From positions 2,839 through 66,838 of IMG/VR virus record IMGVR_UViG_3300035698_000810: a DNA stretch of 64,000 nt. One strand, given 5' to 3'. The translations under genes were made by a program, and so were the position numbers. The notes beneath the pieces were generated by a model that was not told the origin of the DNA, searched no databases, and saw only the letters and a program-made list of their open reading frames with translations. Of the stretch, positions 1-62,884 are shown in pieces; the first letter of the stretch is position 1, and each line of letters starts with the position of its first letter. Source of the DNA: a virus.

Positions 1-170
1 AAGACGTTGTCGTAGTCGCCGGATGTAGCCTCTTTCTCAAAGGCGTCTATCTCCTCACGCGGCACTTTAGCCCGCCGTAAGGCTTTTCTGACAGCACCAA
101 TGATAGCGAATGCGTTACCATCGGTACCGACAAGCTTGACAGTGATATCGGGGTATCTTAGAGCTTGCAT
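1..170 (-). CDS. conserved small phage protein (DGNAF...SGDYD family), runs off the left edge
   Basis: Manual translation from ATG at 170: MQALRYPDITVKLVGTDGNAFAIIGAVRKALRRAKVPREEIDAFEKEATSGDYDNV; RBS GGAGG (179-183, minus); not in the ORF track because it is truncated. Confidence 0.8.
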   Translation of the reverse strand, partial: MQALRYPDITVKLVGTDGNAFAIIGAVRKALRRAKVPREEIDAFEKEATSGDYDNV

Positions 171-412
171 GCTGCTGGCCTCCCACGCTGTCTCTTCTTG
201 GTCCGTATCTTGACCATCTGAGCGTGGAATTTGGTGCCCTTACCGTGGAACCGCTGCGAACCCTTGCTTGCTGTGCCAGGGTTCGTCATCATGCTGCGAA
301 GGCTAGGGATCGCGTCTCCAGCCGCATGGTGCAACAGTCCATTAACTGCTCCGCCCATGTTACTGAACAAGGATCCCATGAGCATTGCCATCATTGAGTG
401 GCGTGGTCTCAT
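158..412 (-). CDS. hypothetical early protein
   Basis: 84-aa ORF, GGAGG RBS upstream, packed between neighbouring genes. Confidence 0.55.
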   Translation of the reverse strand: MRPRHSMMAMLMGSLFSNMGGAVNGLLHHAAGDAIPSLRSMMTNPGTASKGSQRFHGKGTKFHAQMVKIRTKKRQRGRPAACKL

Positions 413-415
413 GCT

Positions 416-694
416 CTATGCCTCCACTAAGATGTAACGGTCATCGTCATCACGTATGGTCAGACGGTTGATACCGCGGTAACCATTCATGATGCACTTC
501 CAAGCACCTTTGATACGCTCCGAGCGCACACACTCGACGATTGTGCCTAGTACTTCGGACCGCTTGTTCACGGCAGTCATGCCGTATACAATTGTCCGCT
601 TTACTACTAGTCCAGCTCTTGGTGTACGTATCGTAGGAGTCGTACGGATAGTCTGTTCATGTATTGAAGATTTGAACATGTGATAGCTCTCCAT
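416..694 (-). CDS. hypothetical early protein (start may be the ATG at 679)
   Basis: ORF directly downstream of the promoter/hairpin/boxA leader. Confidence 0.6.
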   Translation of the reverse strand: MESYHMFKSSIHEQTIRTTPTIRTPRAGLVVKRTIVYGMTAVNKRSEVLGTIVECVRSERIKGAWKCIMNGYRGINRLTIRDDDDRYILVEA

Positions 695-727: not shown

Positions 728-739
728 ATGTCAAATAGC
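728..739 (-). promoter_or_regulatory. boxA-like antitermination site GCTATTTGACAT
   Basis: Resembles rrn boxA (E. coli TGCTCTTTAACA); preceded on the minus strand by a long hairpin (about 747-819) and the 827-865 promoter. Confidence 0.55.
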
Positions 740-826
740 GTTACACAATCAAACCGTATCGCACTCCTTGCATGCCAGGGTAGTCCCTGAGCACCAGTTC
801 ACTATGCGATGCGCCTGATCTCTATT

Positions 827-865
827 ATACTATGGTATCAGTGTCTCTATGTATACCACCGTAAT
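827..865 (-). promoter_or_regulatory. conserved early promoter ATTACG-N4-TATACA-N17-TAGTAT
   Basis: One of five copies with identical spacing; sigma70-like -35/-10. Confidence 0.75.
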
Positions 866-872
866 AAACAAT

Positions 873-906
873 AAAAAAATGGCCCCTCGCTCGAGAGCGA
901 GAGGCC
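873..906 (-). terminator. Rho-independent terminator
   Basis: Minus strand GGCCTCTCGCT-CTCG-AGCGAGGGGCC then A and T7, downstream of the 945-1277 gene. Confidence 0.8.
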
Positions 907-944
907 GAAGTAATACTAGTTGGTTAGGATATGCTTGCCGGCTG

Positions 945-1277
945 CTATCTTATCAATTGGTTCCGTGCCCATGATGAAGGTACCTTAAAGTTGAACCGTA
1001 TTGACATTTTACGGTCTTGGTTACAAACAACCACGATACTCGACGTGGCTACTCTAAATCGTTCTTGCAACGACTCCTCCAACTGTTCTACAGTCACTGG
1101 ACCCACGCGATGAACGAATACAGTAAGCATACCACGGTCCCAGAAAGGTTCTGGTGAGACGTAATCAGCATGCTGCCAATTAGTGATCACACACTGTACT
1201 ACACCCAGTAGTAGTCGCTCGATCGCTACATAAGCAGCAGCGTCTTCATCAAGATCAGATATAGATGTATCACTCAT
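945..1277 (-). CDS. hypothetical early protein
   Basis: 110-aa ORF coupled (TAATG) to the upstream gene and followed by a terminator. Confidence 0.7.
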   Translation of the reverse strand: MSDTSISDLDEDAAAYVAIERLLLGVVQCVITNWQHADYVSPEPFWDRGMLTVFVHRVGPVTVEQLEESLQERFRVATSSIVVVCNQDRKMSIRFNFKVPSSWARNQLIR

Positions 1278-1873
1278 TACAGTTCATCCTTTTCGAAGAC
1301 AACCACGATAACAGAACCGTTTGTCTTGTCATCGTTGTGGTGCTCAAGGTATACAGTGCTAAAGTAACGCACTGCCGACCAGGCTTCGCCACCGAGCATG
1401 GACTTCACAGCGTGTGTTATGTTTAACTGCAACTGCCATAGATCGGCTACAGACACCGTGATGTTGTTGTCCAGTGTAATGATCACGTTGCCTGAATTGA
1501 AGCACATGGAGTCTTCAATAGTTAGCCCAGGCATGTTCTTTACAAAGCCACTCACGAGGTTTATTCGATGTTGAATGTCACCACGCTCTGTGGACTCGAT
1601 ATCCACGGACACGACGTCCATGTACTTGTTGTCGTCCATCACAATATTAAGCGCGCTATGCACCGCTCGTAGTATTGCATCACGATGCACCGCTCGTTGT
1701 ACTATATCACGCTGATCATCATCTAGTTTATCAGCGTAGTCGTTGATGAACTGTTGGAGTAAAACGTTGATGCCATTGCACGCATCATTTAATGGCACGT
1801 CTGATAACGTGGCTATGTTAGACATCATGCCACCGACATGCTTACACCACTGTCTATATGTATCGCTACTCAT
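1277..1873 (-). CDS. hypothetical early protein
   Basis: 198-aa ORF, AGGAG RBS, promoter and boxA upstream. Confidence 0.75.
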   Translation of the reverse strand: MSSDTYRQWCKHVGGMMSNIATLSDVPLNDACNGINVLLQQFINDYADKLDDDQRDIVQRAVHRDAILRAVHSALNIVMDDNKYMDVVSVDIESTERGDIQHRINLVSGFVKNMPGLTIEDSMCFNSGNVIITLDNNITVSVADLWQLQLNITHAVKSMLGGEAWSAVRYFSTVYLEHHNDDKTNGSVIVVVFEKDEL

Positions 1874-1912
1874 GATACAGTCTCCTGTTCAGGTTAATGT
1901 GTTGGGATTCGA

Positions 1913-1924
1913 ATGTCAAAGAAC
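1913..1924 (-). promoter_or_regulatory. boxA-like site GTTCTTTGACAT
   Basis: Close match to rrn-type boxA, immediately after a GTGTGG/CCACAC hairpin. Confidence 0.6.
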
Positions 1925-1959
1925 TAGTGTGGTAGTGTCGTCGTTCCACACACACTATA

Positions 1960-1998
1960 ATACTATTTAATCAGTGAATCAATGTACATACACGTAAT
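1960..1998 (-). promoter_or_regulatory. conserved early promoter ATTACG-N4-TGTACA-N17-TAGTAT
   Basis: Copy of the repeated promoter motif. Confidence 0.75.
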
Positions 1999-2271
1999 GT
2001 ACTTCATTATTGAGCACACGCGCAAGCGTCGAGACCCCGTGATATACACGAGCGCCTAACTACTTGATAACCCATAGTAGTTGGCAGGGTTACCAGGATA
2101 TGATGGAGTTACTGGTGGTTGAGGGATCAAGGTCCCGGGGCCCAGACGGATCACCCAATGAGATACAATGAACCACCTAACACACCCACGATATATTATT
2201 CGATCGAGGTCCACGGCTCACCACCCCGTCACCGACAATAGGTATTCAGGGACACGAAATAGCGGATAAAG

Positions 2272-2302
2272 AAAAACCCTGCAGCCCGAAGGCTGCAGGG
2301 TT
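2272..2302 (-). terminator. Rho-independent terminator with UUCG tetraloop
   Basis: Minus strand AACCCTGCAGCC-TTCG-GGCTGCAGGG-TTTTT, directly after the 2309 stop. Confidence 0.9.
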
Positions 2303-2308
2303 CTGGTG

Positions 2309-2644
2309 TTACGACTCCGCGATAAGGCCGAGCTCGATGAGATCTTTCTTGTAGTACGCCACGATGCGCTCAGGATCTTGTGTGGTCGACAGACCTGCGT
2401 TCTTTGCGAGCACTGCCCACTCTTTGAGCGAGACCTTGGCACCGATATCCAGTGCTGTTATAATCACGCGCGCCTGCTTCGCGAGTCCGTCAGCGGGTAT
2501 CACCGCGTCAAGCCTTTTCCACACCTTCGCGCGTGACTTACGTTGCGACAACTCTTCAATAACTGCCAGCAACTCTTCAGTTTTCCACTCATCTTTTTCT
2601 GATAACGTGGCTGCGAATGCGTCTAGTGATATGCGTTTTCCCAT
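2309..2644 (-). CDS. small helical (winged-helix-like) protein, paralogue 1
   Basis: Start placed at ATG 2644 (GGAG RBS at 2652-2655); motif LAKQARVI...TTQDPERIVAYYKKDLIELG shared with the 56784 and 60044 ORFs. Confidence 0.75.
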   Translation of the reverse strand: MGKRISLDAFAATLSEKDEWKTEELLAVIEELSQRKSRAKVWKRLDAVIPADGLAKQARVIITALDIGAKVSLKEWAVLAKNAGLSTTQDPERIVAYYKKDLIELGLIAES

Positions 2645-2674
2645 AAGAAAACTCCATTGCTGTTGATGATTCAA

Positions 2675-2686
2675 TTGTCAAAGAAC
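2675..2686 (-). promoter_or_regulatory. boxA-like site GTTCTTTGACAA
   Basis: Follows a TGAGTGA/TTACTCA hairpin on the minus strand; TGTACA-N16-TAAAAT promoter with extended -10 TG upstream (about 2720-2747). Confidence 0.6.
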
Positions 2687-2833
2687 ACATGAGTAAGTTG
2701 TTATTCACTCAATACGTAGATTTTATCACATTGAATATGAATGTACATATAAATATGCATAATTATATTTCTTTGTTCAGCAACATTATTACTTGAACGT
2801 GCATATGAACGTAAGATATAGAGAGCGCACACG

Positions 2834-2929
2834 CTAACGTTCGTTAATGAAGACTCACTAACCTTCGTTAACATGTTGACGTTCGTTAATTATCGCATTA
2901 ACCTTCGTTAACATACTAACGTTCGTTAA
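2834..2929. repeat. five copies of a 14-bp quasi-palindrome YTRACSTTCGTTAA
   Basis: Copies start at 2834, 2858, 2876, 2898 and 2916. Confidence 0.9.
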
Positions 2930-3219
2930 CTCGAATAAGGGTTTCCTTTTTTGAGAACAATTGTACGCGTGTCTGGGGCCCTGGGCAGGGGATTTGCTTT
3001 GCACATCATTGTTATATATTGCAGGCATAGCTACATCGTAAATGGAAACCCAGAACGCATGTTCACCTTTTGTTCTTTTGGGTAGTACATATTGCTCGAC
3101 AGGTGGTTATAAATGTGTCCCCCTGATGTTGACGTAAAATAGGTCTGACATCAGTAGATATTGACCGAACTGTGGGGTGGCCAAAGGGCCCTGCCTCAAT
3201 TTTAATGTAAGTGTTAAAA

Positions 3220-3404
3220 GTGTTATATATATAGATATTTTTATTAATAACCTCTAATTATCTAAGTCTAAATTAGTTGTTGTTATATTATGTTTAATAG
3301 TAAATCAATTATATCAACATCAACACAAAAGACATCAGTAGTTAATCCCCATATTTTTATGTAGTCTTCTATTGTTATGTAATAATTTAATCTGTATATA
3401 TAAC
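3220..3404 (+). repeat. dispersed ~185-bp self-complementary element, copy 1 (candidate ncRNA or cis-acting site)
   Basis: 84/120 identity by manual ungapped alignment to 57312 onward; ends 3222-3236 and 3390-3404 are complementary. Confidence 0.75.
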
Positions 3405-3512
3405 CCGGAAATAACCCCCAACCCCTTTGGTATAACCGGAACCTAGACTCCGTTTACATAACTAACTACCTGCAGTACTATCTTAATACATAAATTGTAA
3501 GGGACCTGGTTC

Positions 3513-3662
3513 ATGGGTAAGAAGGTAATTAAGCTCGGAAAGGAAACCGAGAAAAGTACGACTAAGCAGATCTATGACCAGAAAAATAAGTCTGCTATCC
3601 ATATGCTGCACCTAACCACCACAAGCATTAGGCCCACGCCCCTCCCCACTAATACAAACTAA
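3513..3662 (+). CDS. possible 49-aa basic peptide
   Basis: MGKKVIKLGKETEKSTTKQIYDQ...; AAGGGA upstream; below the ORF-track length cutoff. Confidence 0.3.
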   Translation: MGKKVIKLGKETEKSTTKQIYDQKNKSAIHMLHLTTTSIRPTPLPTNTN

Positions 3663-3742
3663 TTACTATCGGGTATATACTCTTTAGTCCTGATTATATA
3701 TAGTCTATTTGTTTGTACGTTGTATTACTTCATATCGATCCA

Positions 3743-3882
3743 GCGGACAATTAGGCGTAACGTCCAGCATGAGGTCGCTGTTGCCACAGCACCAGGGAAT
3801 AGTGCATTAAATATAACGCCAGGCCCGTGCGATCCGGGTCACTTATTCAGGGAGAGGTGTTGTGGCAGTTCCTAAAGTCCGT
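3743..3882 (+). ncRNA. candidate structured ncRNA or leader RNA
   Basis: Five nested helices in an intergenic stretch, with G-U wobbles on the plus strand. Confidence 0.45.
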
Positions 3883-3946
3883 AACCCTAAACCCTCTTGG
3901 TTTCAATCCAAGCTACAGCTTGTGAAACAATGGCTAGGAATATAGA

Positions 3947-7676: not shown

Positions 7677-8234
7677 ATGGCAAATGATTCATTTAAGTGG
7701 ACCGATTCTAATACGGCCCAGTTTCTTTCCGTATTAGAAGCTACGGGTAAGTATTCGCATGCAAGCCGAGCTATACAAGCTCCGTTGAATGCGTACGCAG
7801 CCCGCGGTGAGCGTGATCCTTATTTTAAGGAGCTGATGAAGACCGCTATAGAGTTCTATAAGGACAGCTTCGAGATTGAGGCGACACGCAGAGCGATCAC
7901 TGGTAATGAGGAAGAGATATATCATAACGGCCAGGTAGTCGGCAGTAAGAAGGTTTATTCAGATGGTCTTCTTCGCGTTCTTCTGAAGGCAAATGATCCG
8001 GCAAAGTTCAGCGATAAACAGGTTATCGACCACAACCACAATGGTACTATCCAACACGACCTGAACCTCGATGCACTCCCCTATGAGCAACAAATCATGC
8101 TCTTTGAGATGTTACAAAAGGCCTCAGCCCTCCCATCAAATCCAGATGGTAAGTCACTGCACAAATACCAGACCCCTTTGGTAGCACCACAAGTTCAAGA
8201 CGTTAAATTCGAAGAGGTAGACCCTGATGCGTGA
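7677..8234 (+). CDS. terS: terminase small subunit
   Basis: EATRRAITG...YSDGLLRVLLKANDPAKF pattern; directly upstream of TerL. Confidence 0.8.
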   Translation: MANDSFKWTDSNTAQFLSVLEATGKYSHASRAIQAPLNAYAARGERDPYFKELMKTAIEFYKDSFEIEATRRAITGNEEEIYHNGQVVGSKKVYSDGLLRVLLKANDPAKFSDKQVIDHNHNGTIQHDLNLDALPYEQQIMLFEMLQKASALPSNPDGKSLHKYQTPLVAPQVQDVKFEEVDPDA

Positions 8235-12446: not shown

Positions 12447-12689
12447 ATGAATAGTTCTGATTTAGAAGTTATCAACGTAATCATTGAGGACTTTGTTAAA
12501 GAGCGTAGTGCTCTAGCAGAAAAGATAGTTGCAGGTAAGTTGGATTCTTTTCCATCATACAGGTATCACGTCGGGAAAGTTGAGCAGTGCGATGCATTAA
12601 TTCTTAAAACTAAAACTATTATGAAGCGTCTGTCTGATCAAGACAGTGATGATGGTGAAGAAAGCGCGCCCACTAAATTAGAGGAATAG
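12447..12689 (+). CDS. conserved small head-operon protein
   Basis: 80 aa, YRYHVG motif, between portal and GroES. Confidence 0.7.
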   Translation: MNSSDLEVINVIIEDFVKERSALAEKIVAGKLDSFPSYRYHVGKVEQCDALILKTKTIMKRLSDQDSDDGEESAPTKLEE

Positions 12690-28146: not shown

Positions 28147-29457
28147 ATGCCGTATCGACCACTAGGACCTAGAGTCTCGCAGGCTTTATCTCGGTTCGGT
28201 GACAACTTTCAACCGACTGGCCAGGGCGGATACGATCCGCTTGCGCGTAGGATGTTTGGACCAGGTGAAGCTCCCATACATTCATATACTCCTGATGGCT
28301 CGCAGCCATGGGGTGTAACATCAGCTATTCCTAGCCGTGGACCTGTTCAGATTCCTATTGGCTATGAGGAAGAGCTCGGTGTACAACCACCTATTGGCTA
28401 TGGGGAAGAGCTTGGTGTACAACCACCTATTGGAAGCCAAACAACACTGCCACCTTCTGTGCAGCCACCTTCCACACTACCATACCCTCCTCCCCGTCGT
28501 CCCCAGGTTTCTCAGCAAGCTGGTGGACTACCGCCGCAGGTTAATATGTCAGGACCTATACCTGCAGGACCGCAGGTTGATATGTCAGGACCTATACACA
28601 CACCCGCAGGCACAACGCCTGCGGGCAATGCGTACGCAGCTCAGCTAGAGAAACTCATGGGCGAGTTCTTAAATGCTCCTGAACAAGAGGAGCTTACTGA
28701 GAAAGATAAACGGGCTCAGTGGCTGCGTGCAGGCTTAGCTACTATGCAGGCTGCAGGCCAGCGCGGCTCCACTGCGCTGGGGTCTATCGGTGCTGGTGGT
28801 GTAGCTGCTATGAATTACGGCGACAAGCTCAGGGCACAGCGTGCTAGCACGCGTACTGCTAACCTGGGCCGTGCGTTAGACACAACTGAATTACTTGCTA
28901 GGTATCAGGACCTTCGGGACCAGCGCACGCATGCCTCGGGTGAGAGCAGAGCTGACCGCGCTAGTACTGAAGGCATTGCAAGGTCTGATCGGGCTGTTGA
29001 CGCGTACGAAGCTACAACAGGTCGTATCAGTGCACATAATGATACAGCTGCTAACAATGAGACTCGTGCAAACAATAGAGCTGAGCTTATTATATCTGGT
29101 CAGGAGATACAGCAGAACGAACGAGTCATTCGTAACGAAGCTGGTGCGCGGGTTGGTGAGTTTAGTACTACCCTAAAGAAACAGATTAGTGAAGACCCAA
29201 CTGCACCTGATCGTACACCGCAAGAACTAGACGACTACGTTGATAGCCGTGCTATCCAGCAGTTTGGTGCTGATAGCGAACAGGGTAGACACATTGGTCG
29301 TGCGCGTATCGTTAAGCGGTTTAAGTCTATTCAAGAGCAGCTTAAGACAAACATGATAACGCAAGATCAGTTTGATGCTCAGAAAGCTATCATCACACAA
29401 CAGATGAACATGATCAATGACGGATTAGGAGAGTACTTTGTCAGACATGAGCGGTGA
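28147..29457 (+). CDS. internal virion (ejection) protein 2
   Basis: Pro-rich N-terminus, hydrophobic LRAGLATM...ALGSIGAGG segment, coiled coil; lies between other ejection genes. Confidence 0.65.
   Translation: MPYRPLGPRVSQALSRFGDNFQPTGQGGYDPLARRMFGPGEAPIHSYTPDGSQPWGVTSAIPSRGPVQIPIGYEEELGVQPPIGYGEELGVQPPIGSQTTLPPSVQPPSTLPYPPPRRPQVSQQAGGLPPQVNMSGPIPAGPQVDMSGPIHTPAGTTPAGNAYAAQLEKLMGEFLNAPEQEELTEKDKRAQWLRAGLATMQAAGQRGSTALGSIGAGGVAAMNYGDKLRAQRASTRTANLGRALDTTELLARYQDLRDQRTHASGESRADRASTEGIARSDRAVDAYEATTGRISAHNDTAANNETRANNRAELIISGQEIQQNERVIRNEAGARVGEFSTTLKKQISEDPTAPDRTPQELDDYVDSRAIQQFGADSEQGRHIGRARIVKRFKSIQEQLKTNMITQDQFDAQKAIITQQMNMINDGLGEYFVRHER
28354..28433 (+). repeat. in-frame 36-bp tandem repeat (PIGYxEELGVQP, about 2.2 copies)
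   Basis: Units start at 28354, 28390 and 28426 (partial). Confidence 0.9.
28534..28597 (+). repeat. in-frame repeat with 36-bp period (PQVxMSGPI, two copies)
   Basis: CCGCAGGTTRATATGTCAGGACCTATAC at 28534 and 28570. Confidence 0.9.
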
Positions 29458-32400
29458 CGGCCGCGCAGAGCAGTGGTTGATGGACTTATCGGGTCCGCCT
29501 GAAGAAGATGAAGAGAATACGGAAGCTGTGAACCCTGAGGTTATTAGTGGTCTCTATGACATCTTCTATGATTACAAAGCTCCTGGACTTACAGAGTCTG
29601 ATGGTGAGTCGGAACCCGAAGGCGATTTAACTAATCGGTTCATTCGCGGCGCAGCCAGTATCCCAGCCGACATACTCAAAGCCTCCGGCACCCTTGGTAC
29701 GTATATAGACAAGCAACTTGGTTTAGTCCCCGAAGACTATACAGCCGACCAAGGATCTAAATTTGGTCCGTACGCTGCAGGCCAAGCTATCGAAGATAAA
29801 ATCTTCGAGATGTTTCCAATCAATGAAACAGCTGACCCATCATTTCCTCAGATGTTATCATCGGGCTTAGGTAACTGGGTATCTTTCGCTGGTGGTGGTA
29901 TAGTATCAAAAGCTATCGGTACAGCTGGTGCACGCGGTACAGCTAGGATTGCCGGTAGAGACGCCGCGCGTGCAGCAGCGCTAGAGTCTAAGGCCGCAGG
30001 CATGGTAGTAAACCCAGCCGCGCTACGTGCTGTAGGTCAGGTTGCATCAAACCGCGTTATGAAGAAAGCTGCGACAGCTGCAGGCTATATCGGCGTGGGA
30101 GCTATGGGTGCTGGTGTAACTGCACAGCAACTGTATGATGATGCGAAAGCTAATGGTGCTAGCGAAGACGACTCCATGAAAGCATTCTTCCTAGGTGCTG
30201 GATTAGGTACGACTGAAGCTGTTCCTATTATCAACGCACTAAACCGTATTGACAAGTTCTTACCTGACGGTGCCAAGACTAAGTTCCTCGCCAACGTAGC
30301 TAAGGGCGCGGGCGAAGAAGGCCTACAGGAGTTCTTGGCTGAACTAGGTCAGAACGTTATTGCTAAGGATTTGGTAGGCTACGATGAGGAAAGAGGATAC
30401 TTCGTTAATACGAAAGAGGCCGCGGGTGTAGGCGCCACGTTGGGTGGTGCACTTAATGCAATCCTTGGAGCCTTTGGTTTAAGACGAGCATCCAAGAGGA
30501 TTGACAATGGTGACGATAAGGGCAACGAGGATGGACCGGGTGACCCACCGGGACCTAGTGATACACCTCAACCAACCGGCCCAGGGGAACAGCTGATACA
30601 CTTTGCTTTACCCGCACCTTCTATGCAGAACCGTCCGCCTACTCCTCTACTAGAGCCACCTATCGGTAAGGTACCGGGTGAGGGCTTCACTATGTTTGAG
30701 GACGATGCACCAGGTATCTATGGTGAAGATGGCTTCGTTGATCTGACGAGACTCAAAGCTGCGACAGCTGTTGCACTAGGTGAGAGACAGGCTGAGACAG
30801 GTGCTATCTTAGACGCGGCGCGCAAGGCTACATCCTTGGAGATGGCTGACGTAAACGATCTGCCTGGTTCAGTACGCCAGCGTCTTCAGCAGGAAGCTAT
30901 TAATACTGGTCGTGAACTGCCTGAGTTCTTTTCCAGAAAAGATTTACTCGACAACGGCGTAACACCTGAACAGATTAAACAGACCTTCCGTGAAAAGGAA
31001 GAGGGTTACAAACAGTTCTCTACTACTCCTGGAGTAGACTTAGAAACACTTGCTTCTTTAGATGAGGACGCTGCGTACAACTACGTCGGTGATAACTTCC
31101 CTAGACTTAAGAAGTGGTTGAACGGTACGGTTGAACAGGCTGAGACAGCTGAAGCGCGTATCTTCGCTAACTTATCTAACTCTCCTTTCTTTAACAGGTT
31201 CATCGGCGGAACTGAAGTAGCTTATAATAACGGCGTACCTCGGTTAGTGTACCACGCAACTACGTCCCGAAACCCCTTTGATACCTTTTTACCAGGAACT
31301 CATTACGGTACCAGGGGTTCAGCCGAGGAAAGACTGGGTTCTGATATAACCCCAGACAACCGGCGTGTAATCCCAGGCTACCTGAATATACAGAATCCTC
31401 TACAGGTTGAGGACCATGGCGGCAATCTTGCAGTTGACTACGCTGCAGAGCTTGTTGAGACGGGTATATTAGAAACAGCTGATATAGACAGAATAGTAGA
31501 TGCAGGCGGACCACGCTTCAAGGATGCTGTTAACAGACTGATCGACAAGAACGGTACGAAGACTGGTAAGATACAGTCAATGTGGCAGCGTGTCTGGAAC
31601 GATAAGCGTTTCTTACAACAAGCATATGACATGTACTACGGAGATGAAGCTGGAATGTCCCGTAGTAAGAGTCAGCGTAACTCCGCTCTTGCAGGCATCA
31701 ACCAAGACCTGCAAGAAGAACTGTTCAACGTACTCGAAGAGAAGGGCTACGACGGCTTCACCTACGAGAACATGAACGAAGATAAGGGTGCGCCGTCTTA
31801 TGTTGCGTTCAGACCTGAGCAGTTCAAATCAGTCTTCAACGATAGGTTCGATCCTGACGACGCTAAGTTCAGCACTCAGCCACCGCCTACTACTCCTAAG
31901 TTCAAGGCCACAGCTAAGGTCATAAGACAAGAAGTCGAAGCCATACTTAACAGGATCCTACCTAAGGACAAACCAAGTATTGTCTTACGTCAGGCCATTA
32001 AGGTTGATGTTGCTGATAACCAAGAAGCTCTTAATGCATCTGGCGGTAACTTAGAGCAAGGTGAGTCTGAAATAGAGGTTGCTGGTTACTACGACCCTAC
32101 GCTTAACTTGGTTGCCATTGCTCTTAATAAGGATCCGCGTAAAGCAGCTGCTCACGAAGTAGTCCACTTCCTTATGGAGCGCGGGTTCTTTACTGTAGAT
32201 GAACTCTCAGCTATCGCTGACAACAGAGACGTGCTGGTTCGCATGGCTACTATAGAGCAGGTTGGCCAAGCGAAGTGGGACAAGCTTAATGCCAAGTCTA
32301 GGACTCGGCTGCTTAACATGTATCAGGAACGGTTGTCTAACGAAGAAGCTTTCGCTATTGCCGCCGCGCGATACGATACACTTGTGCATCAAGGCAAAGA

Positions 32401-35400
32401 CCCTGCCAACGTTAAGGGTGTGCTCAAGACTGCATGGGCAAAATTCAATAAGATTATGCGTCAGATTAAATCGTCTCTGGCTGGACAGGGCTTCGAGACT
32501 ATTGAGTCTGTGTTCGAAAGCTATTCCACTGGCCGTGTTGGTAGCAGACCAGAGGGTCAATCAGATCGTGTAGATCAGCAAGTCACGGAAGCTCTCGCCG
32601 GCGTTGATATGGCGCAGGCTGGGTTAGCTCCGTTAGCTGCGCGTGAAGAGAAGCGTCGTAAGAAAGCCGTCAAACAACCCGAGACACTGCGCGGGACTAA
32701 CACGCGTAAGAAGCCTGCACTACGCGTTGATCCTAAGACCGGACGGAAGTTCTCTGTAACCGTGGAGAGTGTTAACGAGGACTGGGACTCAGGCATTGAA
32801 CGCGCCTTCGATGATCCAAACCTGAAACTTCCTAGTAAGGCAGATGGTAACCAATGGTTCGGGTCCCTGTTTGAATATACTAAGAAACCTAAACAGAAAC
32901 AAGACGAGGCTGATGCAGACTACCGTCTCCGTATTAAAGACCAACTGAATAAAGCCGGTGAGTTCGAACCTCGTTTAATGTCTAAGATCAAGGGCCTCAA
33001 TGTGAATGAAGCGCGCTGGGTAGGTTTACCTGCGTGGCTCAAGAGTAAGGCTGATGATAAGATCACTAAGGAAGAGATTCTAAGCTTCACAGCCTCTAAC
33101 ACTGTTGAGGTATGGCAGACCACGTATAGTGGTAATGATGCCAAGTTTGGCAGCTACATTAATGGTGATCTGTACGGCTTTAACTATCGAGAACATGTGT
33201 TTGCTTACCCTGGATCAGATGCTCCTATGGGTACAAACGATGCAGTGGTTTACCGTGAGATAGGTCGTACTCAAGCGGCTGTCACGCTCCACGTTATTCA
33301 GTCTAACAAAGAGAAAAAGGGGCTTTTACTACCACCCGGCAAAGCTCTTGATAGGCAAGTGCAGGATATGCAGCATGCCAGACGCTTCGAGGCTATAACC
33401 AAGGGTATATTCGGTAACCCCGGACCTGAGACCGTAGCTAAAGTTCTTGAATACATAGCTAAGAAAGCAGGTTTCGCTTCACTGGGAGAGATGGCATCTA
33501 AGAATCGTAACCACGCGGATGATACGAATCTAGACCTCAGACTCAAGACAATGGCTGATCGTTATATCACCTGGAATATGGATCTTCTACACGACCTGGA
33601 CATTGGCACTGAAAGTATTTCACTACAAGACGCTATGTGGAAGTACTACGCTTCACAAAAAGATACTGTGCCAACGTTTTACTATACGCGTCCTGCGGCT
33701 GTTGCGCATCTCGAAGACCTTAACGAAGCCACAGAGGCCCAGCAAAACTGGTTCGAAGACTTCGGTGACCTAGTCTCCGGCCACTTAATGGGCTTCGCTG
33801 ATTCAGGATCTAGCACTACAATCGAAACTAAGAAACACAAGTCTACTAAGGTTACCACTGAAGCTGGTGTAGAATCCGAGGGCCATTTATCTGGCGGACA
33901 CTGGGGCAGACACTCTGGCGGCATGGGACCATTCGCCTGGAGTCTTCTTGAGGATGTACAGGTTGGTGATGCTGCCGCTATTAGGATTGTAGAGCTGCAG
34001 TCTGATGAACTGTCTATTGGTAGGGCCCAAGAGAACTTTGAGCATGCGTTCGATAAAAACCAGTGGCCGTTACTTGTCATCAAGAATGCTGTACAAGAAG
34101 CTGTTAAGACCGAGGCCGGCTATGTGTTGTGGCCTACTGGAAAAGAGATTAACGATCGCTGGAACCATGTCCACATCGAGGACGTGACTGAAATAGACAT
34201 TACTATGTTTGGTGATGAAGCTGGCATCTTTGCTGTAGACCCTAAGGACGGACAGATACACCAGTTTATGGGTTCAGAAGATAATAACTTCGAGTATACT
34301 AACCCGTACGAATTGCTGCATAACAAAGATGCACTAAGGGGTTACATAACAGATAAAGAGGCTATGGACCGCATCTTTACGCAGGTAGCTGAGATCAATA
34401 AACGGTATATTGCCGACATAGAAGCTGCTAAAAAGAAATTCCCTGACGTAGCTGCGCAGCTTGAGCGCGACTATGATACCACTGAATATGATCCAGCGGT
34501 TGCGTCTGCGCTGGGTGTTAACCAGAGTAACTACAATATTGAGATCAGTCTACCCAACCCAATCACTGTTGCTGATCCAGGCTTCGTCAATCTATACGAC
34601 AAGCAGGTTGCTAACGATGTACGCAAGTGGTTAAAAGGTATAGGTGTTACGGATGCGCAGGTTGAGAGAGGCATACAACCTAGTGGATCTGAAAGTATCT
34701 CTGTGCCTGGTGTTCGATACCCCTTCGTACAGTCTCTGACTACAGTGCATACTGATACCTACGAAATGATGCATGACTTTATAGCTGGCGACATCGCACG
34801 TAATATCCTAGAGTTAGATACGCACTGGGAGGGTGTGGGTCAAGCTCGGCGCTGGACTGACGTCGTTTCCTTACCTGGTGATAACTTACCTGATAATCCT
34901 TTTGTGCAGGACCTTCCAACGCGTAACGTAGCTAATCCAGGCGATCAGCTACGTGGTCACATTGACGAATCAGGTGAACTTACAGAAGACACTCTAGCGG
35001 AAATCATCTGGGAAATCTACGGTAGTATGCAGGCAGCTGCAGGCAAACCCCCGGCTCGCAGTAACGACTACGCATCATGGGACCGGACTGTGGACCTTAG
35101 CCACGTACAGCTAACAGAATTAGGTAGACAGTTTAAAGACGCGCTGGTTGCTAACAAGTTTGACCGTGCTGACGTAGAGGAAGGCATGCATGATATAGCC
35201 TTCGCCATTAACAAGAACGGTCTGCGTTCTCGTCTTGCTGCTGACGGCAACGCTGAGCTGCTTCATTGGTTTGCTGACAGCCAGGCTGACCCGCTAGGTC
35301 TGTTTGATTCTATCAACGGTTTTACACAGACAATGAACATCCGGCCTGATGCCCTACTCGGCCGGTTTATAGGTAAGGCTTCATTAGTTGTAAACGACCC

Positions 35401-38400
35401 AAGTAATTCACCAGCGTATAAGAGTAACTTCGCCACGCAGCTGGAGCAGCTTACTGGTATCACAGGGGGGATTCTTGATTATGCGTCCAATGCTAGGATA
35501 GATGCTGATGCGTCCGCGGTGTCTGGTCAGCTACCTAAGTATCCTCGTATAGCCCAGAGTATACTTGATGAGGTTTCACAACGCTTCAATGATAATGTTA
35601 AGGAGAACTTCGGTCAACCTCTGAAAACCAAGAAGCAGGGTCCCAAGGTTAATGGACTGAAAATGTCTCCTCAAATCGTAGATGCAGTTAAGCAACGGCT
35701 GACGATGTTCTCAGTAACTCCGACCATGACCCAATCCCTTGATAACACAGTCGATGATTTACTGGGTATGGCTATGGCTGTAGAGCCTGGAGCTGCTAAT
35801 CTGCCGGTACAATACGGCGCACAACCTGAGATGCTTGCCGAATATAAACAGGGGCTTGCCCACTTAGAGACTATAGAAAACGACGTCGAAAAGGATATGT
35901 ACTTCAACAGAGTACTGTCTCCGCTAGAGGAGAAACTTAAGACTCAGCTGAAGGACGGTGTGCAGGCTATGCTGCAGGTACCGACGTCTCGCCGTGCATT
36001 CTTACGCGGGATGTCTGCAGCAGCTACATGGGCTACGCGGTTTACCGATCTACAGAACACGATTACTGCGCTTAAGCCTCTGGACATAGCACCGCTACCG
36101 CAGGTCATTACTCCAGAGATAGCAGGAGCTAGAGCTTACAGCGCAATGTTTGCTAGGTATCTGCAAAGAATTGCTCGAGGTGAGAAGCTGCTGTCTAAGT
36201 ATATACCAGACGTTTATAACGAGGATGGTGTATTTGATCGCTATGACGTTAACCATAGTCGCGTTTTGGACGGCTGGGGTGAAGCGCGTAAGGAACTACG
36301 CGGTGAAGAATTAAACGATGCTTGGAACGCGGCGTACTACCACGATATAGAAACAGCGCAGCCTTTACATTCTAAAGCTTTATTCGAAAGATATTCAGTT
36401 GACCCTGTAATTACTGTACGCGACGAATATGAGAGGAAACATCCTTTCAGTAAATTCAATAAAAACCTTCCTCGCAGAATTAACGCTGATGAGATACCTC
36501 TTGGAATAGAGCAAGAGATTTATGAACTGATGAGTGAGCACAATGACACTGTTCAACAACCTGGCGTAGTAGAGTTTGATAGTGAAGCTAATCCTTACTA
36601 CGGTTACGACTGGAAATCCCGCACAGCTGGATATAAAGAGTTTGATAGTATCGCTAACACACTAACTATCATAGGCGACATACTTACAGATGGTGGTACT
36701 ATACATCCTTATGGCAATGCAAGTGAGCTTGGTGATGAAGCGAATGCTATCAACAACTCAGTTTTGTACGCTTCAAACGAGTTAGAACTAGATACAGCAT
36801 TACGTACGGCTGAGTATCACTTCGCCTGGTCGTTGGAAGACGGTCGCAAAGACCCGGCCACTTATAACTCTATCATGTCTCAGTTCGCAAAAGCGTTCGA
36901 CTATACAGGAGAGATATTTCAGAGCTGGGAAGAAACCAATAAGTGGCTGCGCGAAGTAATATGGAGGTCGGCTAAACGGCTAGCAACAGAGGACATCTAC
37001 GAAGAGGACTTCTATAAATCTAAGAATGCGTCACAAGAGGATGCAGACTTATCAAACGAAGAGTTTATTCTGAAGCGTTATTTAATGGCGCAGGACGCTT
37101 ACTTCCGTTCTCACAAGCCACCAGCAAACGCTAAGTTCTCTACTACAGGTCAGTCAATTGATAGTGAAGACCAGAGTACAGTAGACTCTTACAACAAAGT
37201 ATTCCACCGCGACGTGCGTTCATGGGGCCAGAGAATCCGTGACTGGATTGACTACTTCAAGGATTACGGCTGGCTCGCAGCTAAGCAAGGTTTCTTCGAT
37301 CAGTTCTCTTCACTGAGACAGCACGAGCTGGAAATCTACGGTGAGTACCTTGATGCATCTATCTCCCCGTGGCGCACAGCTTTACTATCTCAGAACCTAG
37401 ACTCGGTCATGAACTATTACTTCATGAGCGGTACTACTATCTACAATCCTGAAAAAGGTATCTTCGAAGCTCAGGAGGACTCGACAGGACTGCTCGAGGT
37501 ATTCCAACCGTTAGTTGATGCTGATCTTATGGATCAGTGGGCAGCGTGGATGGTTGCTAAACGCGCTAGTCGTTTAACTAAAGAGGGTAGGCAGGAACTG
37601 CTGTCCAAAGAGGATATGGATCGGTTCCTAGCCTTAGCTGAAAAGCACTCAGATGCCGTAAGCTTTGAAGACATCGATGCTGAATGGCAGAAGTTTAACA
37701 AGTCTGTTCTGAATATGGCTGAGTCAGCTGGCATCATTGATGCTGAGTCCCGTCCGTCTTGGGAAGCCACTGACTACGTACCGTTCTATAGAGTCATGGA
37801 AGACGAGTTCAGACAGAACATACTGAAAAAAGGTCCTAACGCAGGTAAGGGTCTAGCCAACCAGAAGTCAGGCATGTGGGCTCTATACGGTGGCACTGAC
37901 AAACAGGTTGATCCCTTTGAAGGTATCGTCATGAACCTGTCTAAGTTAGTAGATGCTAGCTATAAGAACGTCGCGATGATTAAGGTTGCAGAGATGCTTG
38001 AAGGCACCGAGACTATTACTGAACAGAACTCTCGTGCGTTTACCAGAGCCCAGGTCCCAGTTGGGGAAATGAAAAAGGCATTGCGTAAACTCGGGTTTGA
38101 TGTGTCTAGGACCGGGGTCCCCGGAGCTAACAGTTTGATTGAGAACGTTGCTGCACTTACTAAACCCAAGGGTGACAACGTTATCTCGGTCATGGTTGGT
38201 GGTAAGCCTAAGTACTACAAGGTGAATGATGCGCTTACGCTTCAGGCACTAACTGGTATGGACTACACCTTACCCGGCTTTATCTCGACTGCAGCCAACA
38301 TGAAGACCTTATTCACTAACATGGTCACACACGATCCAGGCTTTATGCTTGCTAATATCTTTAGGGATACGGTCTCGACCTTTGTCGTAACTGGCAAGAC

Positions 38401-39877
38401 TAGTCTACGTGATGTCATAGCCGGGGTACACGAGGGCTACACAGGCGGAGAGAATCTTGACGCCATAGTTGCAGCGGGTGGTGGCGGTTTTGGCTTCTAC
38501 AAGACTGCACCGGCCTCCGCGCGTGGTAATATTAAGCGTCTACACACTGAGGGCCGTAAGGCCACCGTGGTGGAGAGCATACTGTCCTCACCTAAACGCG
38601 CTTGGCGCTTCTTAGAACGACTCGGTCGTGCTACTGAAATGGCTAACCGTATTGCCATCCGTAAACACGTGCTTAAGAACGGCGGAACAGAGGCTGAAGC
38701 TGCTGCTCAGGCGCAGGACGTGTTGAACTTCTCAATGCGTGGCTCTCATGAGGCTGTACGCTGGCTGACTGCTACTATACCTTTCGTCAACGCGCGTATG
38801 CAGGGTCTCTATCGTCTAGGTCGTGGCGCGCATGAAGACCCAGGCGGGTTCTTCTTACGTGGTGCGGCTATCACTGCAGCCACTGCTGCTCTGTACGCTG
38901 TCAACCAGGATGATGAGCGGTACAAAGCTCTAGAAGATTGGGACAAGGATACGTACTACCACATCTATCTGGATACTATCTTCCCTGGAGACGTTGTTGA
39001 TGATGTGTTCGGAGATTCACCCAAGCATTTCCGCATACCTAAACCATTCGAAGTCGGAGCCATCTTCTCTACTATACTTGAGCGTGCAATGCTTAACTTC
39101 AGTGGAACCGACGAGAACAAACATACTCAGGACGCTGCACTAAGGATGATCACAGACACCTTTGCTATCAATCCCCTTGGTATCCAGGTGATTTGGCCTA
39201 TGCTTGAACAGTGGGCTAACAAGAACACGTTTACAGATAGACCCATCATCGGCATCGGCGATCAAGGTCTATCTCCACCAGCGCAATACGATCCAATGAC
39301 GTCTAAGCCCATGCGAGCCGTGGCTAGCTTCATGCATGAACTGTTCGGTGATAAAGCACCTGAGACGCTGACTAGTCCTAAGCGACTGGAGCACCTTGTG
39401 CAGGGTTACTTAGGTACAATCGGTGGCTATGCCTTAGCTGCGTCCGACGGTATCTACCGTCTCATGGAAGACGGTGAACGTCCTGCACTCCGCATTGACC
39501 AGATGCCTGTGTTCAAGCGGTTCATCCAAGAAGAACCCGCTAGTACTACGCGGTACTTAACAGACTTCTATGACCTTAGGTCCAAAGCTAACGAGACACA
39601 TCGTACGCTAACTAAGTGGCGGGATGAAGGTCAGAAGGACAAGGCCAAAGACATACTAGATGACGAAAGAAAGAGTCGTTTACTTAAGGTGCGGTCAAGG
39701 CTTAATATAATACATAATCAACTGACACTGGTACGCGACGCGCGCAGACAGTTGTATGATAACCCTCGTCTTACAGCGCAAGTTAAGCGTGATATGGATG
39801 ACATACTTATCGAACGGCGTAACAAGGTTGCGTCTAACGTGCAGCGGCTTTTACGTAAAGTCTACAACGGTTCATAG
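29438..39877 (+). CDS. giant polyvalent internal virion protein (ART-PolyVal-like, HExxH metallopeptidase-like, C-terminal LPD38-like)
   Basis: 3479 aa; VYHAT..YLNIQNP..GYDG..VAFRPEQFKS; GYYDP..AAHEVVH; LNFSMRG..IPFVNARMQG..RIPKPFEVG; AGGAG RBS before TTG. Confidence 0.85.
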   Translation: MSDMSGDGRAEQWLMDLSGPPEEDEENTEAVNPEVISGLYDIFYDYKAPGLTESDGESEPEGDLTNRFIRGAASIPADILKASGTLGTYIDKQLGLVPEDYTADQGSKFGPYAAGQAIEDKIFEMFPINETADPSFPQMLSSGLGNWVSFAGGGIVSKAIGTAGARGTARIAGRDAARAAALESKAAGMVVNPAALRAVGQVASNRVMKKAATAAGYIGVGAMGAGVTAQQLYDDAKANGASEDDSMKAFFLGAGLGTTEAVPIINALNRIDKFLPDGAKTKFLANVAKGAGEEGLQEFLAELGQNVIAKDLVGYDEERGYFVNTKEAAGVGATLGGALNAILGAFGLRRASKRIDNGDDKGNEDGPGDPPGPSDTPQPTGPGEQLIHFALPAPSMQNRPPTPLLEPPIGKVPGEGFTMFEDDAPGIYGEDGFVDLTRLKAATAVALGERQAETGAILDAARKATSLEMADVNDLPGSVRQRLQQEAINTGRELPEFFSRKDLLDNGVTPEQIKQTFREKEEGYKQFSTTPGVDLETLASLDEDAAYNYVGDNFPRLKKWLNGTVEQAETAEARIFANLSNSPFFNRFIGGTEVAYNNGVPRLVYHATTSRNPFDTFLPGTHYGTRGSAEERLGSDITPDNRRVIPGYLNIQNPLQVEDHGGNLAVDYAAELVETGILETADIDRIVDAGGPRFKDAVNRLIDKNGTKTGKIQSMWQRVWNDKRFLQQAYDMYYGDEAGMSRSKSQRNSALAGINQDLQEELFNVLEEKGYDGFTYENMNEDKGAPSYVAFRPEQFKSVFNDRFDPDDAKFSTQPPPTTPKFKATAKVIRQEVEAILNRILPKDKPSIVLRQAIKVDVADNQEALNASGGNLEQGESEIEVAGYYDPTLNLVAIALNKDPRKAAAHEVVHFLMERGFFTVDELSAIADNRDVLVRMATIEQVGQAKWDKLNAKSRTRLLNMYQERLSNEEAFAIAAARYDTLVHQGKDPANVKGVLKTAWAKFNKIMRQIKSSLAGQGFETIESVFESYSTGRVGSRPEGQSDRVDQQVTEALAGVDMAQAGLAPLAAREEKRRKKAVKQPETLRGTNTRKKPALRVDPKTGRKFSVTVESVNEDWDSGIERAFDDPNLKLPSKADGNQWFGSLFEYTKKPKQKQDEADADYRLRIKDQLNKAGEFEPRLMSKIKGLNVNEARWVGLPAWLKSKADDKITKEEILSFTASNTVEVWQTTYSGNDAKFGSYINGDLYGFNYREHVFAYPGSDAPMGTNDAVVYREIGRTQAAVTLHVIQSNKEKKGLLLPPGKALDRQVQDMQHARRFEAITKGIFGNPGPETVAKVLEYIAKKAGFASLGEMASKNRNHADDTNLDLRLKTMADRYITWNMDLLHDLDIGTESISLQDAMWKYYASQKDTVPTFYYTRPAAVAHLEDLNEATEAQQNWFEDFGDLVSGHLMGFADSGSSTTIETKKHKSTKVTTEAGVESEGHLSGGHWGRHSGGMGPFAWSLLEDVQVGDAAAIRIVELQSDELSIGRAQENFEHAFDKNQWPLLVIKNAVQEAVKTEAGYVLWPTGKEINDRWNHVHIEDVTEIDITMFGDEAGIFAVDPKDGQIHQFMGSEDNNFEYTNPYELLHNKDALRGYITDKEAMDRIFTQVAEINKRYIADIEAAKKKFPDVAAQLERDYDTTEYDPAVASALGVNQSNYNIEISLPNPITVADPGFVNLYDKQVANDVRKWLKGIGVTDAQVERGIQPSGSESISVPGVRYPFVQSLTTVHTDTYEMMHDFIAGDIARNILELDTHWEGVGQARRWTDVVSLPGDNLPDNPFVQDLPTRNVANPGDQLRGHIDESGELTEDTLAEIIWEIYGSMQAAAGKPPARSNDYASWDRTVDLSHVQLTELGRQFKDALVANKFDRADVEEGMHDIAFAINKNGLRSRLAADGNAELLHWFADSQADPLGLFDSINGFTQTMNIRPDALLGRFIGKASLVVNDPSNSPAYKSNFATQLEQLTGITGGILDYASNARIDADASAVSGQLPKYPRIAQSILDEVSQRFNDNVKENFGQPLKTKKQGPKVNGLKMSPQIVDAVKQRLTMFSVTPTMTQSLDNTVDDLLGMAMAVEPGAANLPVQYGAQPEMLAEYKQGLAHLETIENDVEKDMYFNRVLSPLEEKLKTQLKDGVQAMLQVPTSRRAFLRGMSAAATWATRFTDLQNTITALKPLDIAPLPQVITPEIAGARAYSAMFARYLQRIARGEKLLSKYIPDVYNEDGVFDRYDVNHSRVLDGWGEARKELRGEELNDAWNAAYYHDIETAQPLHSKALFERYSVDPVITVRDEYERKHPFSKFNKNLPRRINADEIPLGIEQEIYELMSEHNDTVQQPGVVEFDSEANPYYGYDWKSRTAGYKEFDSIANTLTIIGDILTDGGTIHPYGNASELGDEANAINNSVLYASNELELDTALRTAEYHFAWSLEDGRKDPATYNSIMSQFAKAFDYTGEIFQSWEETNKWLREVIWRSAKRLATEDIYEEDFYKSKNASQEDADLSNEEFILKRYLMAQDAYFRSHKPPANAKFSTTGQSIDSEDQSTVDSYNKVFHRDVRSWGQRIRDWIDYFKDYGWLAAKQGFFDQFSSLRQHELEIYGEYLDASISPWRTALLSQNLDSVMNYYFMSGTTIYNPEKGIFEAQEDSTGLLEVFQPLVDADLMDQWAAWMVAKRASRLTKEGRQELLSKEDMDRFLALAEKHSDAVSFEDIDAEWQKFNKSVLNMAESAGIIDAESRPSWEATDYVPFYRVMEDEFRQNILKKGPNAGKGLANQKSGMWALYGGTDKQVDPFEGIVMNLSKLVDASYKNVAMIKVAEMLEGTETITEQNSRAFTRAQVPVGEMKKALRKLGFDVSRTGVPGANSLIENVAALTKPKGDNVISVMVGGKPKYYKVNDALTLQALTGMDYTLPGFISTAANMKTLFTNMVTHDPGFMLANIFRDTVSTFVVTGKTSLRDVIAGVHEGYTGGENLDAIVAAGGGGFGFYKTAPASARGNIKRLHTEGRKATVVESILSSPKRAWRFLERLGRATEMANRIAIRKHVLKNGGTEAEAAAQAQDVLNFSMRGSHEAVRWLTATIPFVNARMQGLYRLGRGAHEDPGGFFLRGAAITAATAALYAVNQDDERYKALEDWDKDTYYHIYLDTIFPGDVVDDVFGDSPKHFRIPKPFEVGAIFSTILERAMLNFSGTDENKHTQDAALRMITDTFAINPLGIQVIWPMLEQWANKNTFTDRPIIGIGDQGLSPPAQYDPMTSKPMRAVASFMHELFGDKAPETLTSPKRLEHLVQGYLGTIGGYALAASDGIYRLMEDGERPALRIDQMPVFKRFIQEEPASTTRYLTDFYDLRSKANETHRTLTKWRDEGQKDKAKDILDDERKSRLLKVRSRLNIIHNQLTLVRDARRQLYDNPRLTAQVKRDMDDILIERRNKVASNVQRLLRKVYNGS

Positions 39878-62632: not shown

Positions 62633-62711
62633 TATTTTCCACCATGTTATGAGTCTCTTTAATCTTAGGGGTATTTATAATTCATCATTATACACAGTGA
62701 AACCCCCGTAA

Positions 62712-62750
62712 ATTTCTATGGTTTAAAAAATACTGCCGATAATATACTAT
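62712..62750 (+). promoter_or_regulatory. rightward promoter ATTTCT-N4-TTTAAA-N17-TACTAT
   Basis: Variant of the repeated motif with the same spacing, pointing at the HTH gene. Confidence 0.6.
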
Positions 62751-62777
62751 GTAATTATTGAGAGTGTGTTGTTCTCA

Positions 62778-62884
62778 ATGTCAAAGACTACGGGACCTCG
62801 GTGATCCCCGGGTGACGACCTAAGTTGCCGGGGTCCTTCTTCTTTGTAGGAGTAGAGTATGGCCCAGAGTCGTGGTCCTGTTAA
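62778..62884 (-). promoter_or_regulatory. leftward promoter TTAACA-N17-CATACT, GC hairpin and boxA-like AGTCTTTGACAT
   Basis: -35 at 62879-62884, -10 at 62856-62861, CCCCGG/CCGGGG stem, boxA-like site at 62778-62789. Confidence 0.45.

Follow-up and report, generated by a model that had tools for sequence, protein, structure and literature searches.

Whether a phage may take over the antitermination signal of the bacterial ribosomal RNA (rRNA) operons, rrn, for its own first transcripts is the question raised by a 64,000-nucleotide (nt) stretch of viral DNA, bases 2839-66838 of the 66,838-bp virus record IMGVR_UViG_3300035698_000810, which is called the window here. Control by boxA and the Nus factors is textbook knowledge in two settings, the rRNA operons and phage lambda, which has its N protein, and has more recently been demonstrated for suhB and for CRISPR arrays. 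In the original prediction, four leaders on the minus strand of the window were proposed to share the order promoter, hairpin, boxA-like 12-mer and ribosome-binding site, and the phage was proposed to recruit the host rRNA antitermination complex so as to shield its early transcripts from Rho or to speed them up. The present analysis points to three boxA elements of the host type, real and probably functional, and to two decayed copies, all in the putative early leaders of this phage, and to a mechanism that is plausible as judged from the sequence.

All four 12-mers are present on the minus strand where they had been placed (S1 to S4, Table 1), and a fifth copy, S5, lies in the record outside the window. 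The exact word GYTCTTTGACAW is found in S2 and S3 and in the outside copy S5, in each case in a 5′ leader and 31-40 nt before a start codon; the two exact occurrences in the window compare with 0.03 expected, and none of 100 shuffled sequences reached two. With up to one mismatch, five sites were found in the window against 1.30 expected (0/100 shuffles reaching five), and with up to two mismatches 22 against 17.4 (11/100 reaching 22). S2, S3 and S5 are far beyond chance, S1 is borderline, and S4 is indistinguishable from background by the 12-mer alone. The word T[CA]TTTGACA, searched in the whole genome, occurs five times on the minus strand and never on the plus strand (100 Markov-1 simulations: mean 1.30, maximum 6); on reading of the maps of open reading frames (ORFs) all five copies are intergenic, and four of them stand 31-49 nt before a start codon. 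In a MAFFT alignment of the five leaders, T.TTTGACA is the sole invariant island and the remainder is unalignable, which indicates that the motif was kept while its flanks diverged; S4 and S5 have, in addition, TCTTTGACATT and GAACAACA in common. It is this context, in strand, intergenic position and (for S4) shared flanks, that favours S1 and S4.

The likeness to boxA extends beyond the core. A 19-mer, GYTCTTTGACAWTYGAATC, derived from the phage copies alone and scanned against one genome per bacterial species, was found at 121 loci at least, with about 35 expected by chance in the whole collection on a rough uniform-composition estimate. Among the matches listed, 20 of the 121 loci lie on the same strand upstream of rRNA, as located by BLAST with the 5′ ends of E. 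coli 16S and 23S: 13 at 43-85 nt before the 23S 5′ end, several with a transfer RNA (tRNA) upstream, and 7 at 156-262 nt before the 16S 5′ end. This number is a lower bound, 300 nt downstream having been covered per locus and many of the genomes being metagenome bins. The rrn-linked loci with titles, again among the matches listed, belong to Rhizobiales, Devosia, Roseitalea, a Pseudomonadales bin, Desulfarculaceae, Pyrinomonadaceae, Terriglobia and Saccharibacteria. Since the 13 and the 7 loci sit where the spacer and leader boxA stand, respectively, the phage word including its flank is an rrn boxA variant that occurs naturally in many non-enteric bacteria and has G in place of the A of E. 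coli. The longer pattern with the phage-specific AACA tail gave only five bacterial loci, none beside an rRNA gene, which resemble chance matches. As a separate observation, one Verrucomicrobiia bin has at least seven loci in which the 19-mer is followed by GGATGC-rich repeats and in which 300 nt of flank contained no detected rRNA gene; here a bacterium uses a boxA-like word in several copies apart from rRNA.

Base by base, the E. coli rrnH leader reads TGCTCTTTAACAATTTATCAGACAATC and S5 reads CGCTCTTTGACATTTGAATCAGAACAAC. The excerpts available of PMC3177189 (PMC5725501, PMC13753749 and PMC11893012 are likewise cited from excerpts) describe recognition by NusB-NusE of eight nucleotides, N-G-C/U-U-C-U-U-U, followed by a purine that differs between Aquifex (G) and E. 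coli (A) and for which no clear base-specific contact is described, so that the G of the phage word at this place poses no obstacle. The exact core G-Y-T-C-T-T-T is found in S2, S3 and S5; S1 fails by a change of C to A and S4 by A-G instead of G-Y. The gamma-proteobacterial consensus is GYTCTTTAANA, with T permitted at the second base (PMC5725501), and the boxA-like consensus of the rrn operons of Bacillus (B. subtilis) is AUGAUCUUUGAAA, with G after TTT (PMC13753749). All five phage copies have G-A after UUU, unlike the gamma-proteobacterial A-A, a difference that is informative about the host group and does not speak against a boxA.

Every copy is in sense orientation and is preceded by a promoter-like site or a TATAAT hexamer, and the three copies with a full core also stand before a Shine-Dalgarno sequence. 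The putative left early region is best explained as a series of consecutive units, each running from a preceding terminator through a promoter, in some cases a hairpin, boxA, a Shine-Dalgarno sequence and one or more genes to the next terminator (units A to D, Table 1). The proposed common order holds for S3 and roughly for S2; S1 has a TATAAT without a -35, and in S4 the order is not cleanly kept, only a weak promoter-like site being present upstream and a TATAAT (62692-62687, recognised by eye) lying between S4 and the start codon, about 145 nt away from S4. In unit C, the ORF at 416-694 more likely starts at the ATG at 679, after GGAGAG.

Table 1. The boxA copies, their hairpins and the surrounding transcription units. 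Positions are those of the window, except where marked as genome, and lengths are in nucleotides (nt), base pairs (bp) or amino acids (aa).
Feature	Position	Strand	Description
S1	728-739	-	GCTATTTGACAT; core GCTATTT, core C replaced by A; degenerate
S2	1906-1924 (12-mer 1913-1924)	-	12-mer GTTCTTTGACAT; GTTCTTTGACATTCGAATC matches the 19-mer exactly; 40 nt to ATG
S3	2668-2686 (12-mer 2675-2686)	-	12-mer GTTCTTTGACAA; GTTCTTTGACAATTGAATC matches the rrn-type 19-mer exactly; 31 nt between GTTCTTTGACA and ATG
S4	62778-62789	-	AGTCTTTGACAT; core AGTCTTT, two core changes; divergent intergenic region before the replication-gene operon
S5	genome 2695-2706, outside the window	-	CGCTCTTTGACAT; 33 nt before ATG of a 205-aa ORF; best copy
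S1 leader structure	741-819	-	inner stem ATCGCA 810-805 / TGCGAT 763-758; long structured leader
S2 hairpin	1927-1951	-	GTGTGG / CCACAC, 13-nt loop
S3 hairpin	2690-2711	-	7 bp, TGAGTGA / TTACTCA, 8-nt loop; ends 3 nt before the boxA G
S4 stems	62792-62833	-	GC-rich; CCCCGG 62833-62828 / CCGGGG 62811-62806; GGGATC / GGTCCC at 62808-62792
Unit A, order			promoter-like site 2747-2720, hairpin, S3, 111-aa ORF, terminator 2304-2273
Unit A promoter-like site	2720-2747	-	TGTACA, 16 nt, TAAAAT; TG before the -10
Unit A coding sequence	2309-2644	-	111 aa, no family match
Unit A terminator-like hairpin	2273-2304	-	intrinsic type, 14 pairs and T-run
Unit B, order			promoter-like site 1982-1954, hairpin, S2, 198-aa and 110-aa ORFs, terminator 906-881
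Unit B promoter-like site	1954-1982	-	TTGATT, 17 nt, TATAGT
Unit B pair of coding sequences	945-1873	-	198 aa at 1277-1873; 110 aa at 945-1277; no family match
Unit B terminator-like hairpin	881-906	-	intrinsic type, 11 pairs and T-run
Unit C, order			TATAAT 829-824, structured leader, S1, three small ORFs, hairpin and T-run (unflagged in the terminator scan)
Unit C start	829-824	-	TATAAT, perfect -10 without a -35; by eye, unflagged in the promoter scan
Unit C coding sequences	3-694	-	416-694, 158-412, 3-170 (the last extends beyond the window)
Unit D, order			TATAAT 18 nt upstream, no hairpin, S5, 205-aa ORF, terminator genome 2033-2004
Promoter-like site upstream of S4	62856-62884	-	TTAACA, 17 nt, CATACT; weak; overlaps the start of the plus-strand ORF 62859-63287

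The four hairpin stems that had been named are all present, and only two of the four structures fold better than shuffled sequences (200 shuffles each). The S3 hairpin (2688-2713 folded) has -6.4 kcal/mol and z -4.03, with 0/200 shuffles as stable, and the S1 leader (741-819) has -27.2 kcal/mol and z -2.15, with 5/200; the corresponding values are z -1.33 and 19/200 for S2 (1925-1953 folded) and z -0.01 and 87/200 for S4 (62790-62836 folded), and S5 has no hairpin. In the RNA the S2 hairpin may form incompletely, since the predicted +1 (about 1947) falls within its 5′ arm. In S2, S3 and S4 (three of the five copies) the boxA G is preceded, at a distance of 0-5 nt, by a stem of 6 bp or more, as against 9% of 20,000 random genome positions, and the same layout of hairpin and then boxA is seen in the E. 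coli leader and in examples of bacterial spacers. Having no sequence in common, the stems provide no shared boxB for an N-type protein. In agreement with the prediction, no N-like gene was recognised among the 14 early ORFs searched with Pfam or the 12 searched with PHROGs. The 84-aa early ORF at 158-412 (minus strand), the one early ORF whose translation was inspected for arginine-rich stretches, has an arginine- and lysine-rich tail, VKIRTKKRQRGRPAACKL, and no family match.

These data are best read as an N-independent recruitment of host NusB/S10 to the early transcripts, a reading that we hold to be about evenly balanced between right and wrong. As the leader RNA leaves the host RNA polymerase, single-stranded boxA would bind host NusB-S10; S10 would capture NusG on the polymerase, and together with NusA and SuhB an elongation complex of the ribosomal type would be formed, which would resist Rho and pause less, so that the first phage messages would be completed before phage functions take over. 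A phage N-type protein would not be needed, and the dispensable role of a boxB would fall to the hairpin that immediately precedes boxA in S3 and perhaps to those of S2 and S4. What the sequence shows is the identity with natural rrn boxA, the strand and the location in leaders; the promoters, the early timing and the binding of NusB-S10 are proposed, and any effect of boxA on Rho or on the speed of elongation is conjecture. The part of the original prediction that stands up is provided by the three copies with full core, rrn flank and leader position; what weakens it is the spoiled core of S1 and S4 together with the weak hairpins. A bolder version, which we consider rather improbable, is that this virulent-looking, non-lambdoid phage carries one promoter-hairpin-boxA cassette per early unit and, with no protein of its own, converts host polymerase into antitermination complexes of the ribosomal type, that these complexes pass the intrinsic terminators separating the units and in this way set the order and dose of the early genes, that the abundant boxA RNAs soak up NusB-S10 and starve the host rRNA operons, and that S1 and S4 are tuned weak sites and not relics.

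Several results weigh against recruitment of the host complex. S1 bears a null-type change, since C to A at this position greatly reduced NusB-NusE affinity in the lambda boxA (PMC3177189) and served as the null control at suhB (PMC5725501), and S4 is altered at two core bases, with G to U at one of these positions being deleterious in the lambda boxA (PMC3177189); by E. coli rules, both are unlikely to be good NusB-S10 sites. The invariant part of the five copies is the 3′ half, TTTGACA, which also contains the sigma-70 -35 consensus, and it is the 5′ half contacted by NusB that varies. No GU-rich boxC was found downstream of the phage copies, which are followed instead by A/C-rich sequence (GAATC..AACA), unlike the boxA of the E. 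coli rrnH leader, which is followed by TGTGTGGG. At equilibrium the boxA core is predicted to be no more accessible than the rest of the leader (0.15-0.44 vs 0.34-0.58), a result that is neutral to slightly negative because loading would be co-transcriptional. In none of the three scanned regions were promoter-like sites more frequent than in shuffles (nine found vs 8.4 expected in the region of units A and B, five vs 3.9 in that of S4), so that the site at 2720-2747 is consistent with a promoter and no more.

The specificity of the word is also open to objection. The loose form TCTTT[AG]ANA is frequent on both strands of the genome (15 found vs 4.45 expected), two of the five one-mismatch matches lie in coding DNA, at 8099-8110 (plus strand) and 12493-12504 (minus strand), and 17 further sites with two mismatches are matches in coding DNA of the quality of S1 and S4. 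Equally good matches in coding DNA had been named in advance as evidence against the prediction; S2 and S3 exceed what chance would give, and S1 and S4 are equalled there. The first of the two coding sites, GCTCTTTGAGAT, one mismatch from the phage word, is in the sense strand of the small-terminase gene, 117 nt before the start of the large-terminase gene. The second, GCTCTTTAACAA, is a perfect E. coli-type boxA 12-mer and lies antisense within an 80-aa plus-strand ORF (12447-12689), a counter-example to specificity that is probably due to chance; on a uniform-composition estimate, about 0.008 exact E. coli-type 12-mers are expected per genome.

Conservation, which had been suggested as a check, gave no support, since the distant relatives are without the motif and no close relative was found. 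In five distant relatives of about 60 kb, GYTCTTTRANA had five matches and the control seven. In 80 metagenome loci (916,209 bases), all ten matches to GYTCTTTGACA are inside the coding sequence of the anchor gene; these relatives share 41-56% identity in one protein with the phage, have a guanine plus cytosine (G+C) content of 32-44% in the seven checked, lower than that of the window, and show no boxA in a leader around the neighbouring gene of 41-56% identity. Homologous leaders were not found in the collections searched, nor was a relative of the 198-aa early protein. Megablast against named phages gave no nucleotide match, and the best protein identities in the named phages and viral contigs searched are 40% or less; the phage appears to be an orphan with no close relative in these collections. 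Of the 65 distinct matches to a 17-mer in viral contigs, 13 carry the G-Y prefix, a share that does not clearly exceed the expected 12.5%.

The alternative that survives best, although we consider it unlikely, accepts a real boxA and reverses its outcome, as at suhB: with boxA near the ribosome-binding site, the Nus complex would block translation initiation, transcription would be uncoupled from translation and terminated by Rho, and host Nus levels would throttle the early genes. Four of the five copies stand 31-49 nt before a start codon, inside the 50-nt target window of PMC5725501, and the excerpts of the same paper report that inserting DNA between the suhB boxA and the Shine-Dalgarno sequence did not relieve repression; boxA can, moreover, stimulate or inhibit Rho termination depending on context (2025 review, PMC12360218). 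The phage would, on the other hand, gain little from repressing four of its own early units, each of them with a strong -10.

It is also conceivable, with rather low probability, that the conserved element acts as DNA, TTGACA being the -35 of second, downstream promoters or T.TTTGACAWT an operator at which a DNA-binding protein of the phage or the host blocks or activates the early units. This would account for TTGACA being identical in all five copies, including the two with a spoiled boxA core, and it finds some agreement in TATAAG and TAACCT at 17-nt spacing in S5 and S2, respectively, and in the weakly helix-turn-helix-like protein encoded beside S4. The positions for a -10 are, nevertheless, poor in S1 (TCCCTT), S3 (AATGGA) and S4 (TCAATA), the would-be starts fall in or after Shine-Dalgarno sequences, and the promoter scans never reported the TTGACA of any of the five copies as promoter-like. 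The lack of dyad symmetry, the orientation of all copies along transcription and the spacing from the upstream -10, which ranges between 18 and about 85 nt, also count against a role as DNA. G-Y-T-C before TTTGACA, present in three of the five copies at a chance of 1/128 each, is left unexplained by a -35, and so is the identity with rrn by any function at the DNA level.

A different role of the RNA, as a promoter-proximal pause or weak attenuator (hairpin and UCUUU), a translation enhancer, an RNase site or a small-RNA target, is very doubtful. The S4 stem with GTAGTCTTTG was flagged as terminator-like by the scan, a U-rich word follows the stems in S3 and S2 too, and the copies stand at a fairly uniform distance from the start codon; the stems are, however, weak and dissimilar and missing in S5, the window has no family match in Rfam, and the identity of the 19-mer with a word at rrn boxA positions would be left without explanation. 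That the copies are chance words or relics of leader duplication is least probable of all, very improbable in our judgement, since three exact copies (about 0.03 expected per window), all in sense-strand leaders within 2.8 kb, and 19 nt kept while the flanks fully diverged outweigh the facts that coding DNA has matches as good as S4 and, less so, as S1, that a perfect E. coli-type 12-mer lies antisense inside a gene and that the motif is not common to relatives.

The genome around these units has a G+C content of 42-51% (window, 2-kb steps) and is organised, according to PHROGs, with terminase, portal, major head, ejection proteins and a 3479-aa virion protein on the plus strand at about 7.7-40.6 kb, and with DNA polymerase, dCMP deaminase and thymidylate synthase on the minus strand at 48.7-56 kb. 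The small minus-strand ORFs have no known families and form a run that starts beside a 1.2-kb AT-rich divergent region (2760-3946) and is closed by a terminator-like hairpin at genome 2033-2004; from this layout alone, they would be the early genes. Five direct 19-nt iterons (ACAnnCTAACSTTCGTTAA; spacing 18-24 nt, window 2829-2929) stand just upstream of the unit A promoter-like site and may belong to an origin or form an array of operators that serves the early promoters. The 142-aa ORF beside S4 adjoins a divergent control region (62640-62860) and gives a weak helix-turn-helix signal (Pfam HTH_3 with E 0.0042, below the cut-off; phrog_1373 with E 3.5e-4). A plus-strand run of genes from this ORF (62859-63903 region) appears to pass over the record's end and to go on at its beginning (genome 1 to about 2000), in which case the record would be circularly permuted. 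In the 3479-aa ORF (29438-39877, plus strand), matches to PHROGs of unknown function are confined to a short stretch in the middle and to the C-terminal region (residues about 2900-3470), and for the first 1187 residues named phages offer almost no relatives. This large ORF had suggested an N4-like phage, with hairpin promoters for a virion RNA polymerase, an assignment that was rejected as PHROGs gave no RNA polymerase match and the genome organisation is different. The window contains no tRNA gene in the scan made for them.

Among the known systems, the bacterial rrn antiterminator (boxB, boxA and boxC, with NusB, S10, NusA, NusG, SuhB and the protein S4) has the same core, G-Y-U-C-U-U-U, and in many bacteria the same flank, GACAWUYGAAUC, at rrn positions; a hairpin 5′ of boxA is shared by three of the five phage copies, and in neither case would a phage protein be required. 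Unlike in rrn, the phage element precedes translated mRNAs, is without boxC and without pairing of leader and trailer, and is repeated before each of several short units closed by intrinsic terminators, with the core spoiled in two of the copies. A boxA alone near a start codon, without N, is likewise found in the 5′ untranslated region of suhB in E. coli and Salmonella and at predicted sites within 50 nt of gene starts (PMC5725501), and boxA is also described before CRISPR operons (PMC13753749). At suhB, according to the same excerpts of PMC5725501, the outcome is repression and Rho termination with a 6-nt gap to the Shine-Dalgarno sequence, in contrast to a gap of about 20-35 nt and a viral gene in the phage.

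The nut sites of lambda are similar in placing boxA in the early leaders of a phage, with a dependence on Nus factors that is presumed for the phage studied here. They differ in having boxA followed by boxB and in using N, whereas the order here is hairpin and then boxA, as the original prediction had stated and as holds for the copies with a hairpin, the hairpins have no common sequence, and the full UUU is of the rrn type. The nearest published case, in the excerpts available, is that of the non-lambdoid mEpimmI phages, with the N-like protein Gp17 and nut sites (PMC11893012), and a Gp17-like protein was not recognised among the early ORFs searched with Pfam and PHROGs. In the full-text literature covered, mostly without subscription journals, no description of an rrn-type boxA in leaders of non-lambdoid phages was found. 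If the recruitment of host NusB/S10 is true, phages would hijack the ribosomal antitermination complex with an RNA of about 12-19 nt alone, a simple and portable device against Rho, and the boxA variant would mark host range, because it should match that of the host. The unrelated, uncultured phage contigs L022, L036/L050 and L035, and also the contig L042, likewise have a promoter-like site and a hairpin before GYTCTTTGACAAT.GAATC and a Shine-Dalgarno sequence after it; in L042 the word lies 11 nt after the 3′ end of a tRNA, an arrangement like that of an rrn spacer. A search of phage contigs for further copies in this layout gave at most two per contig. The phage described here has an array of four consecutive units bearing boxA.

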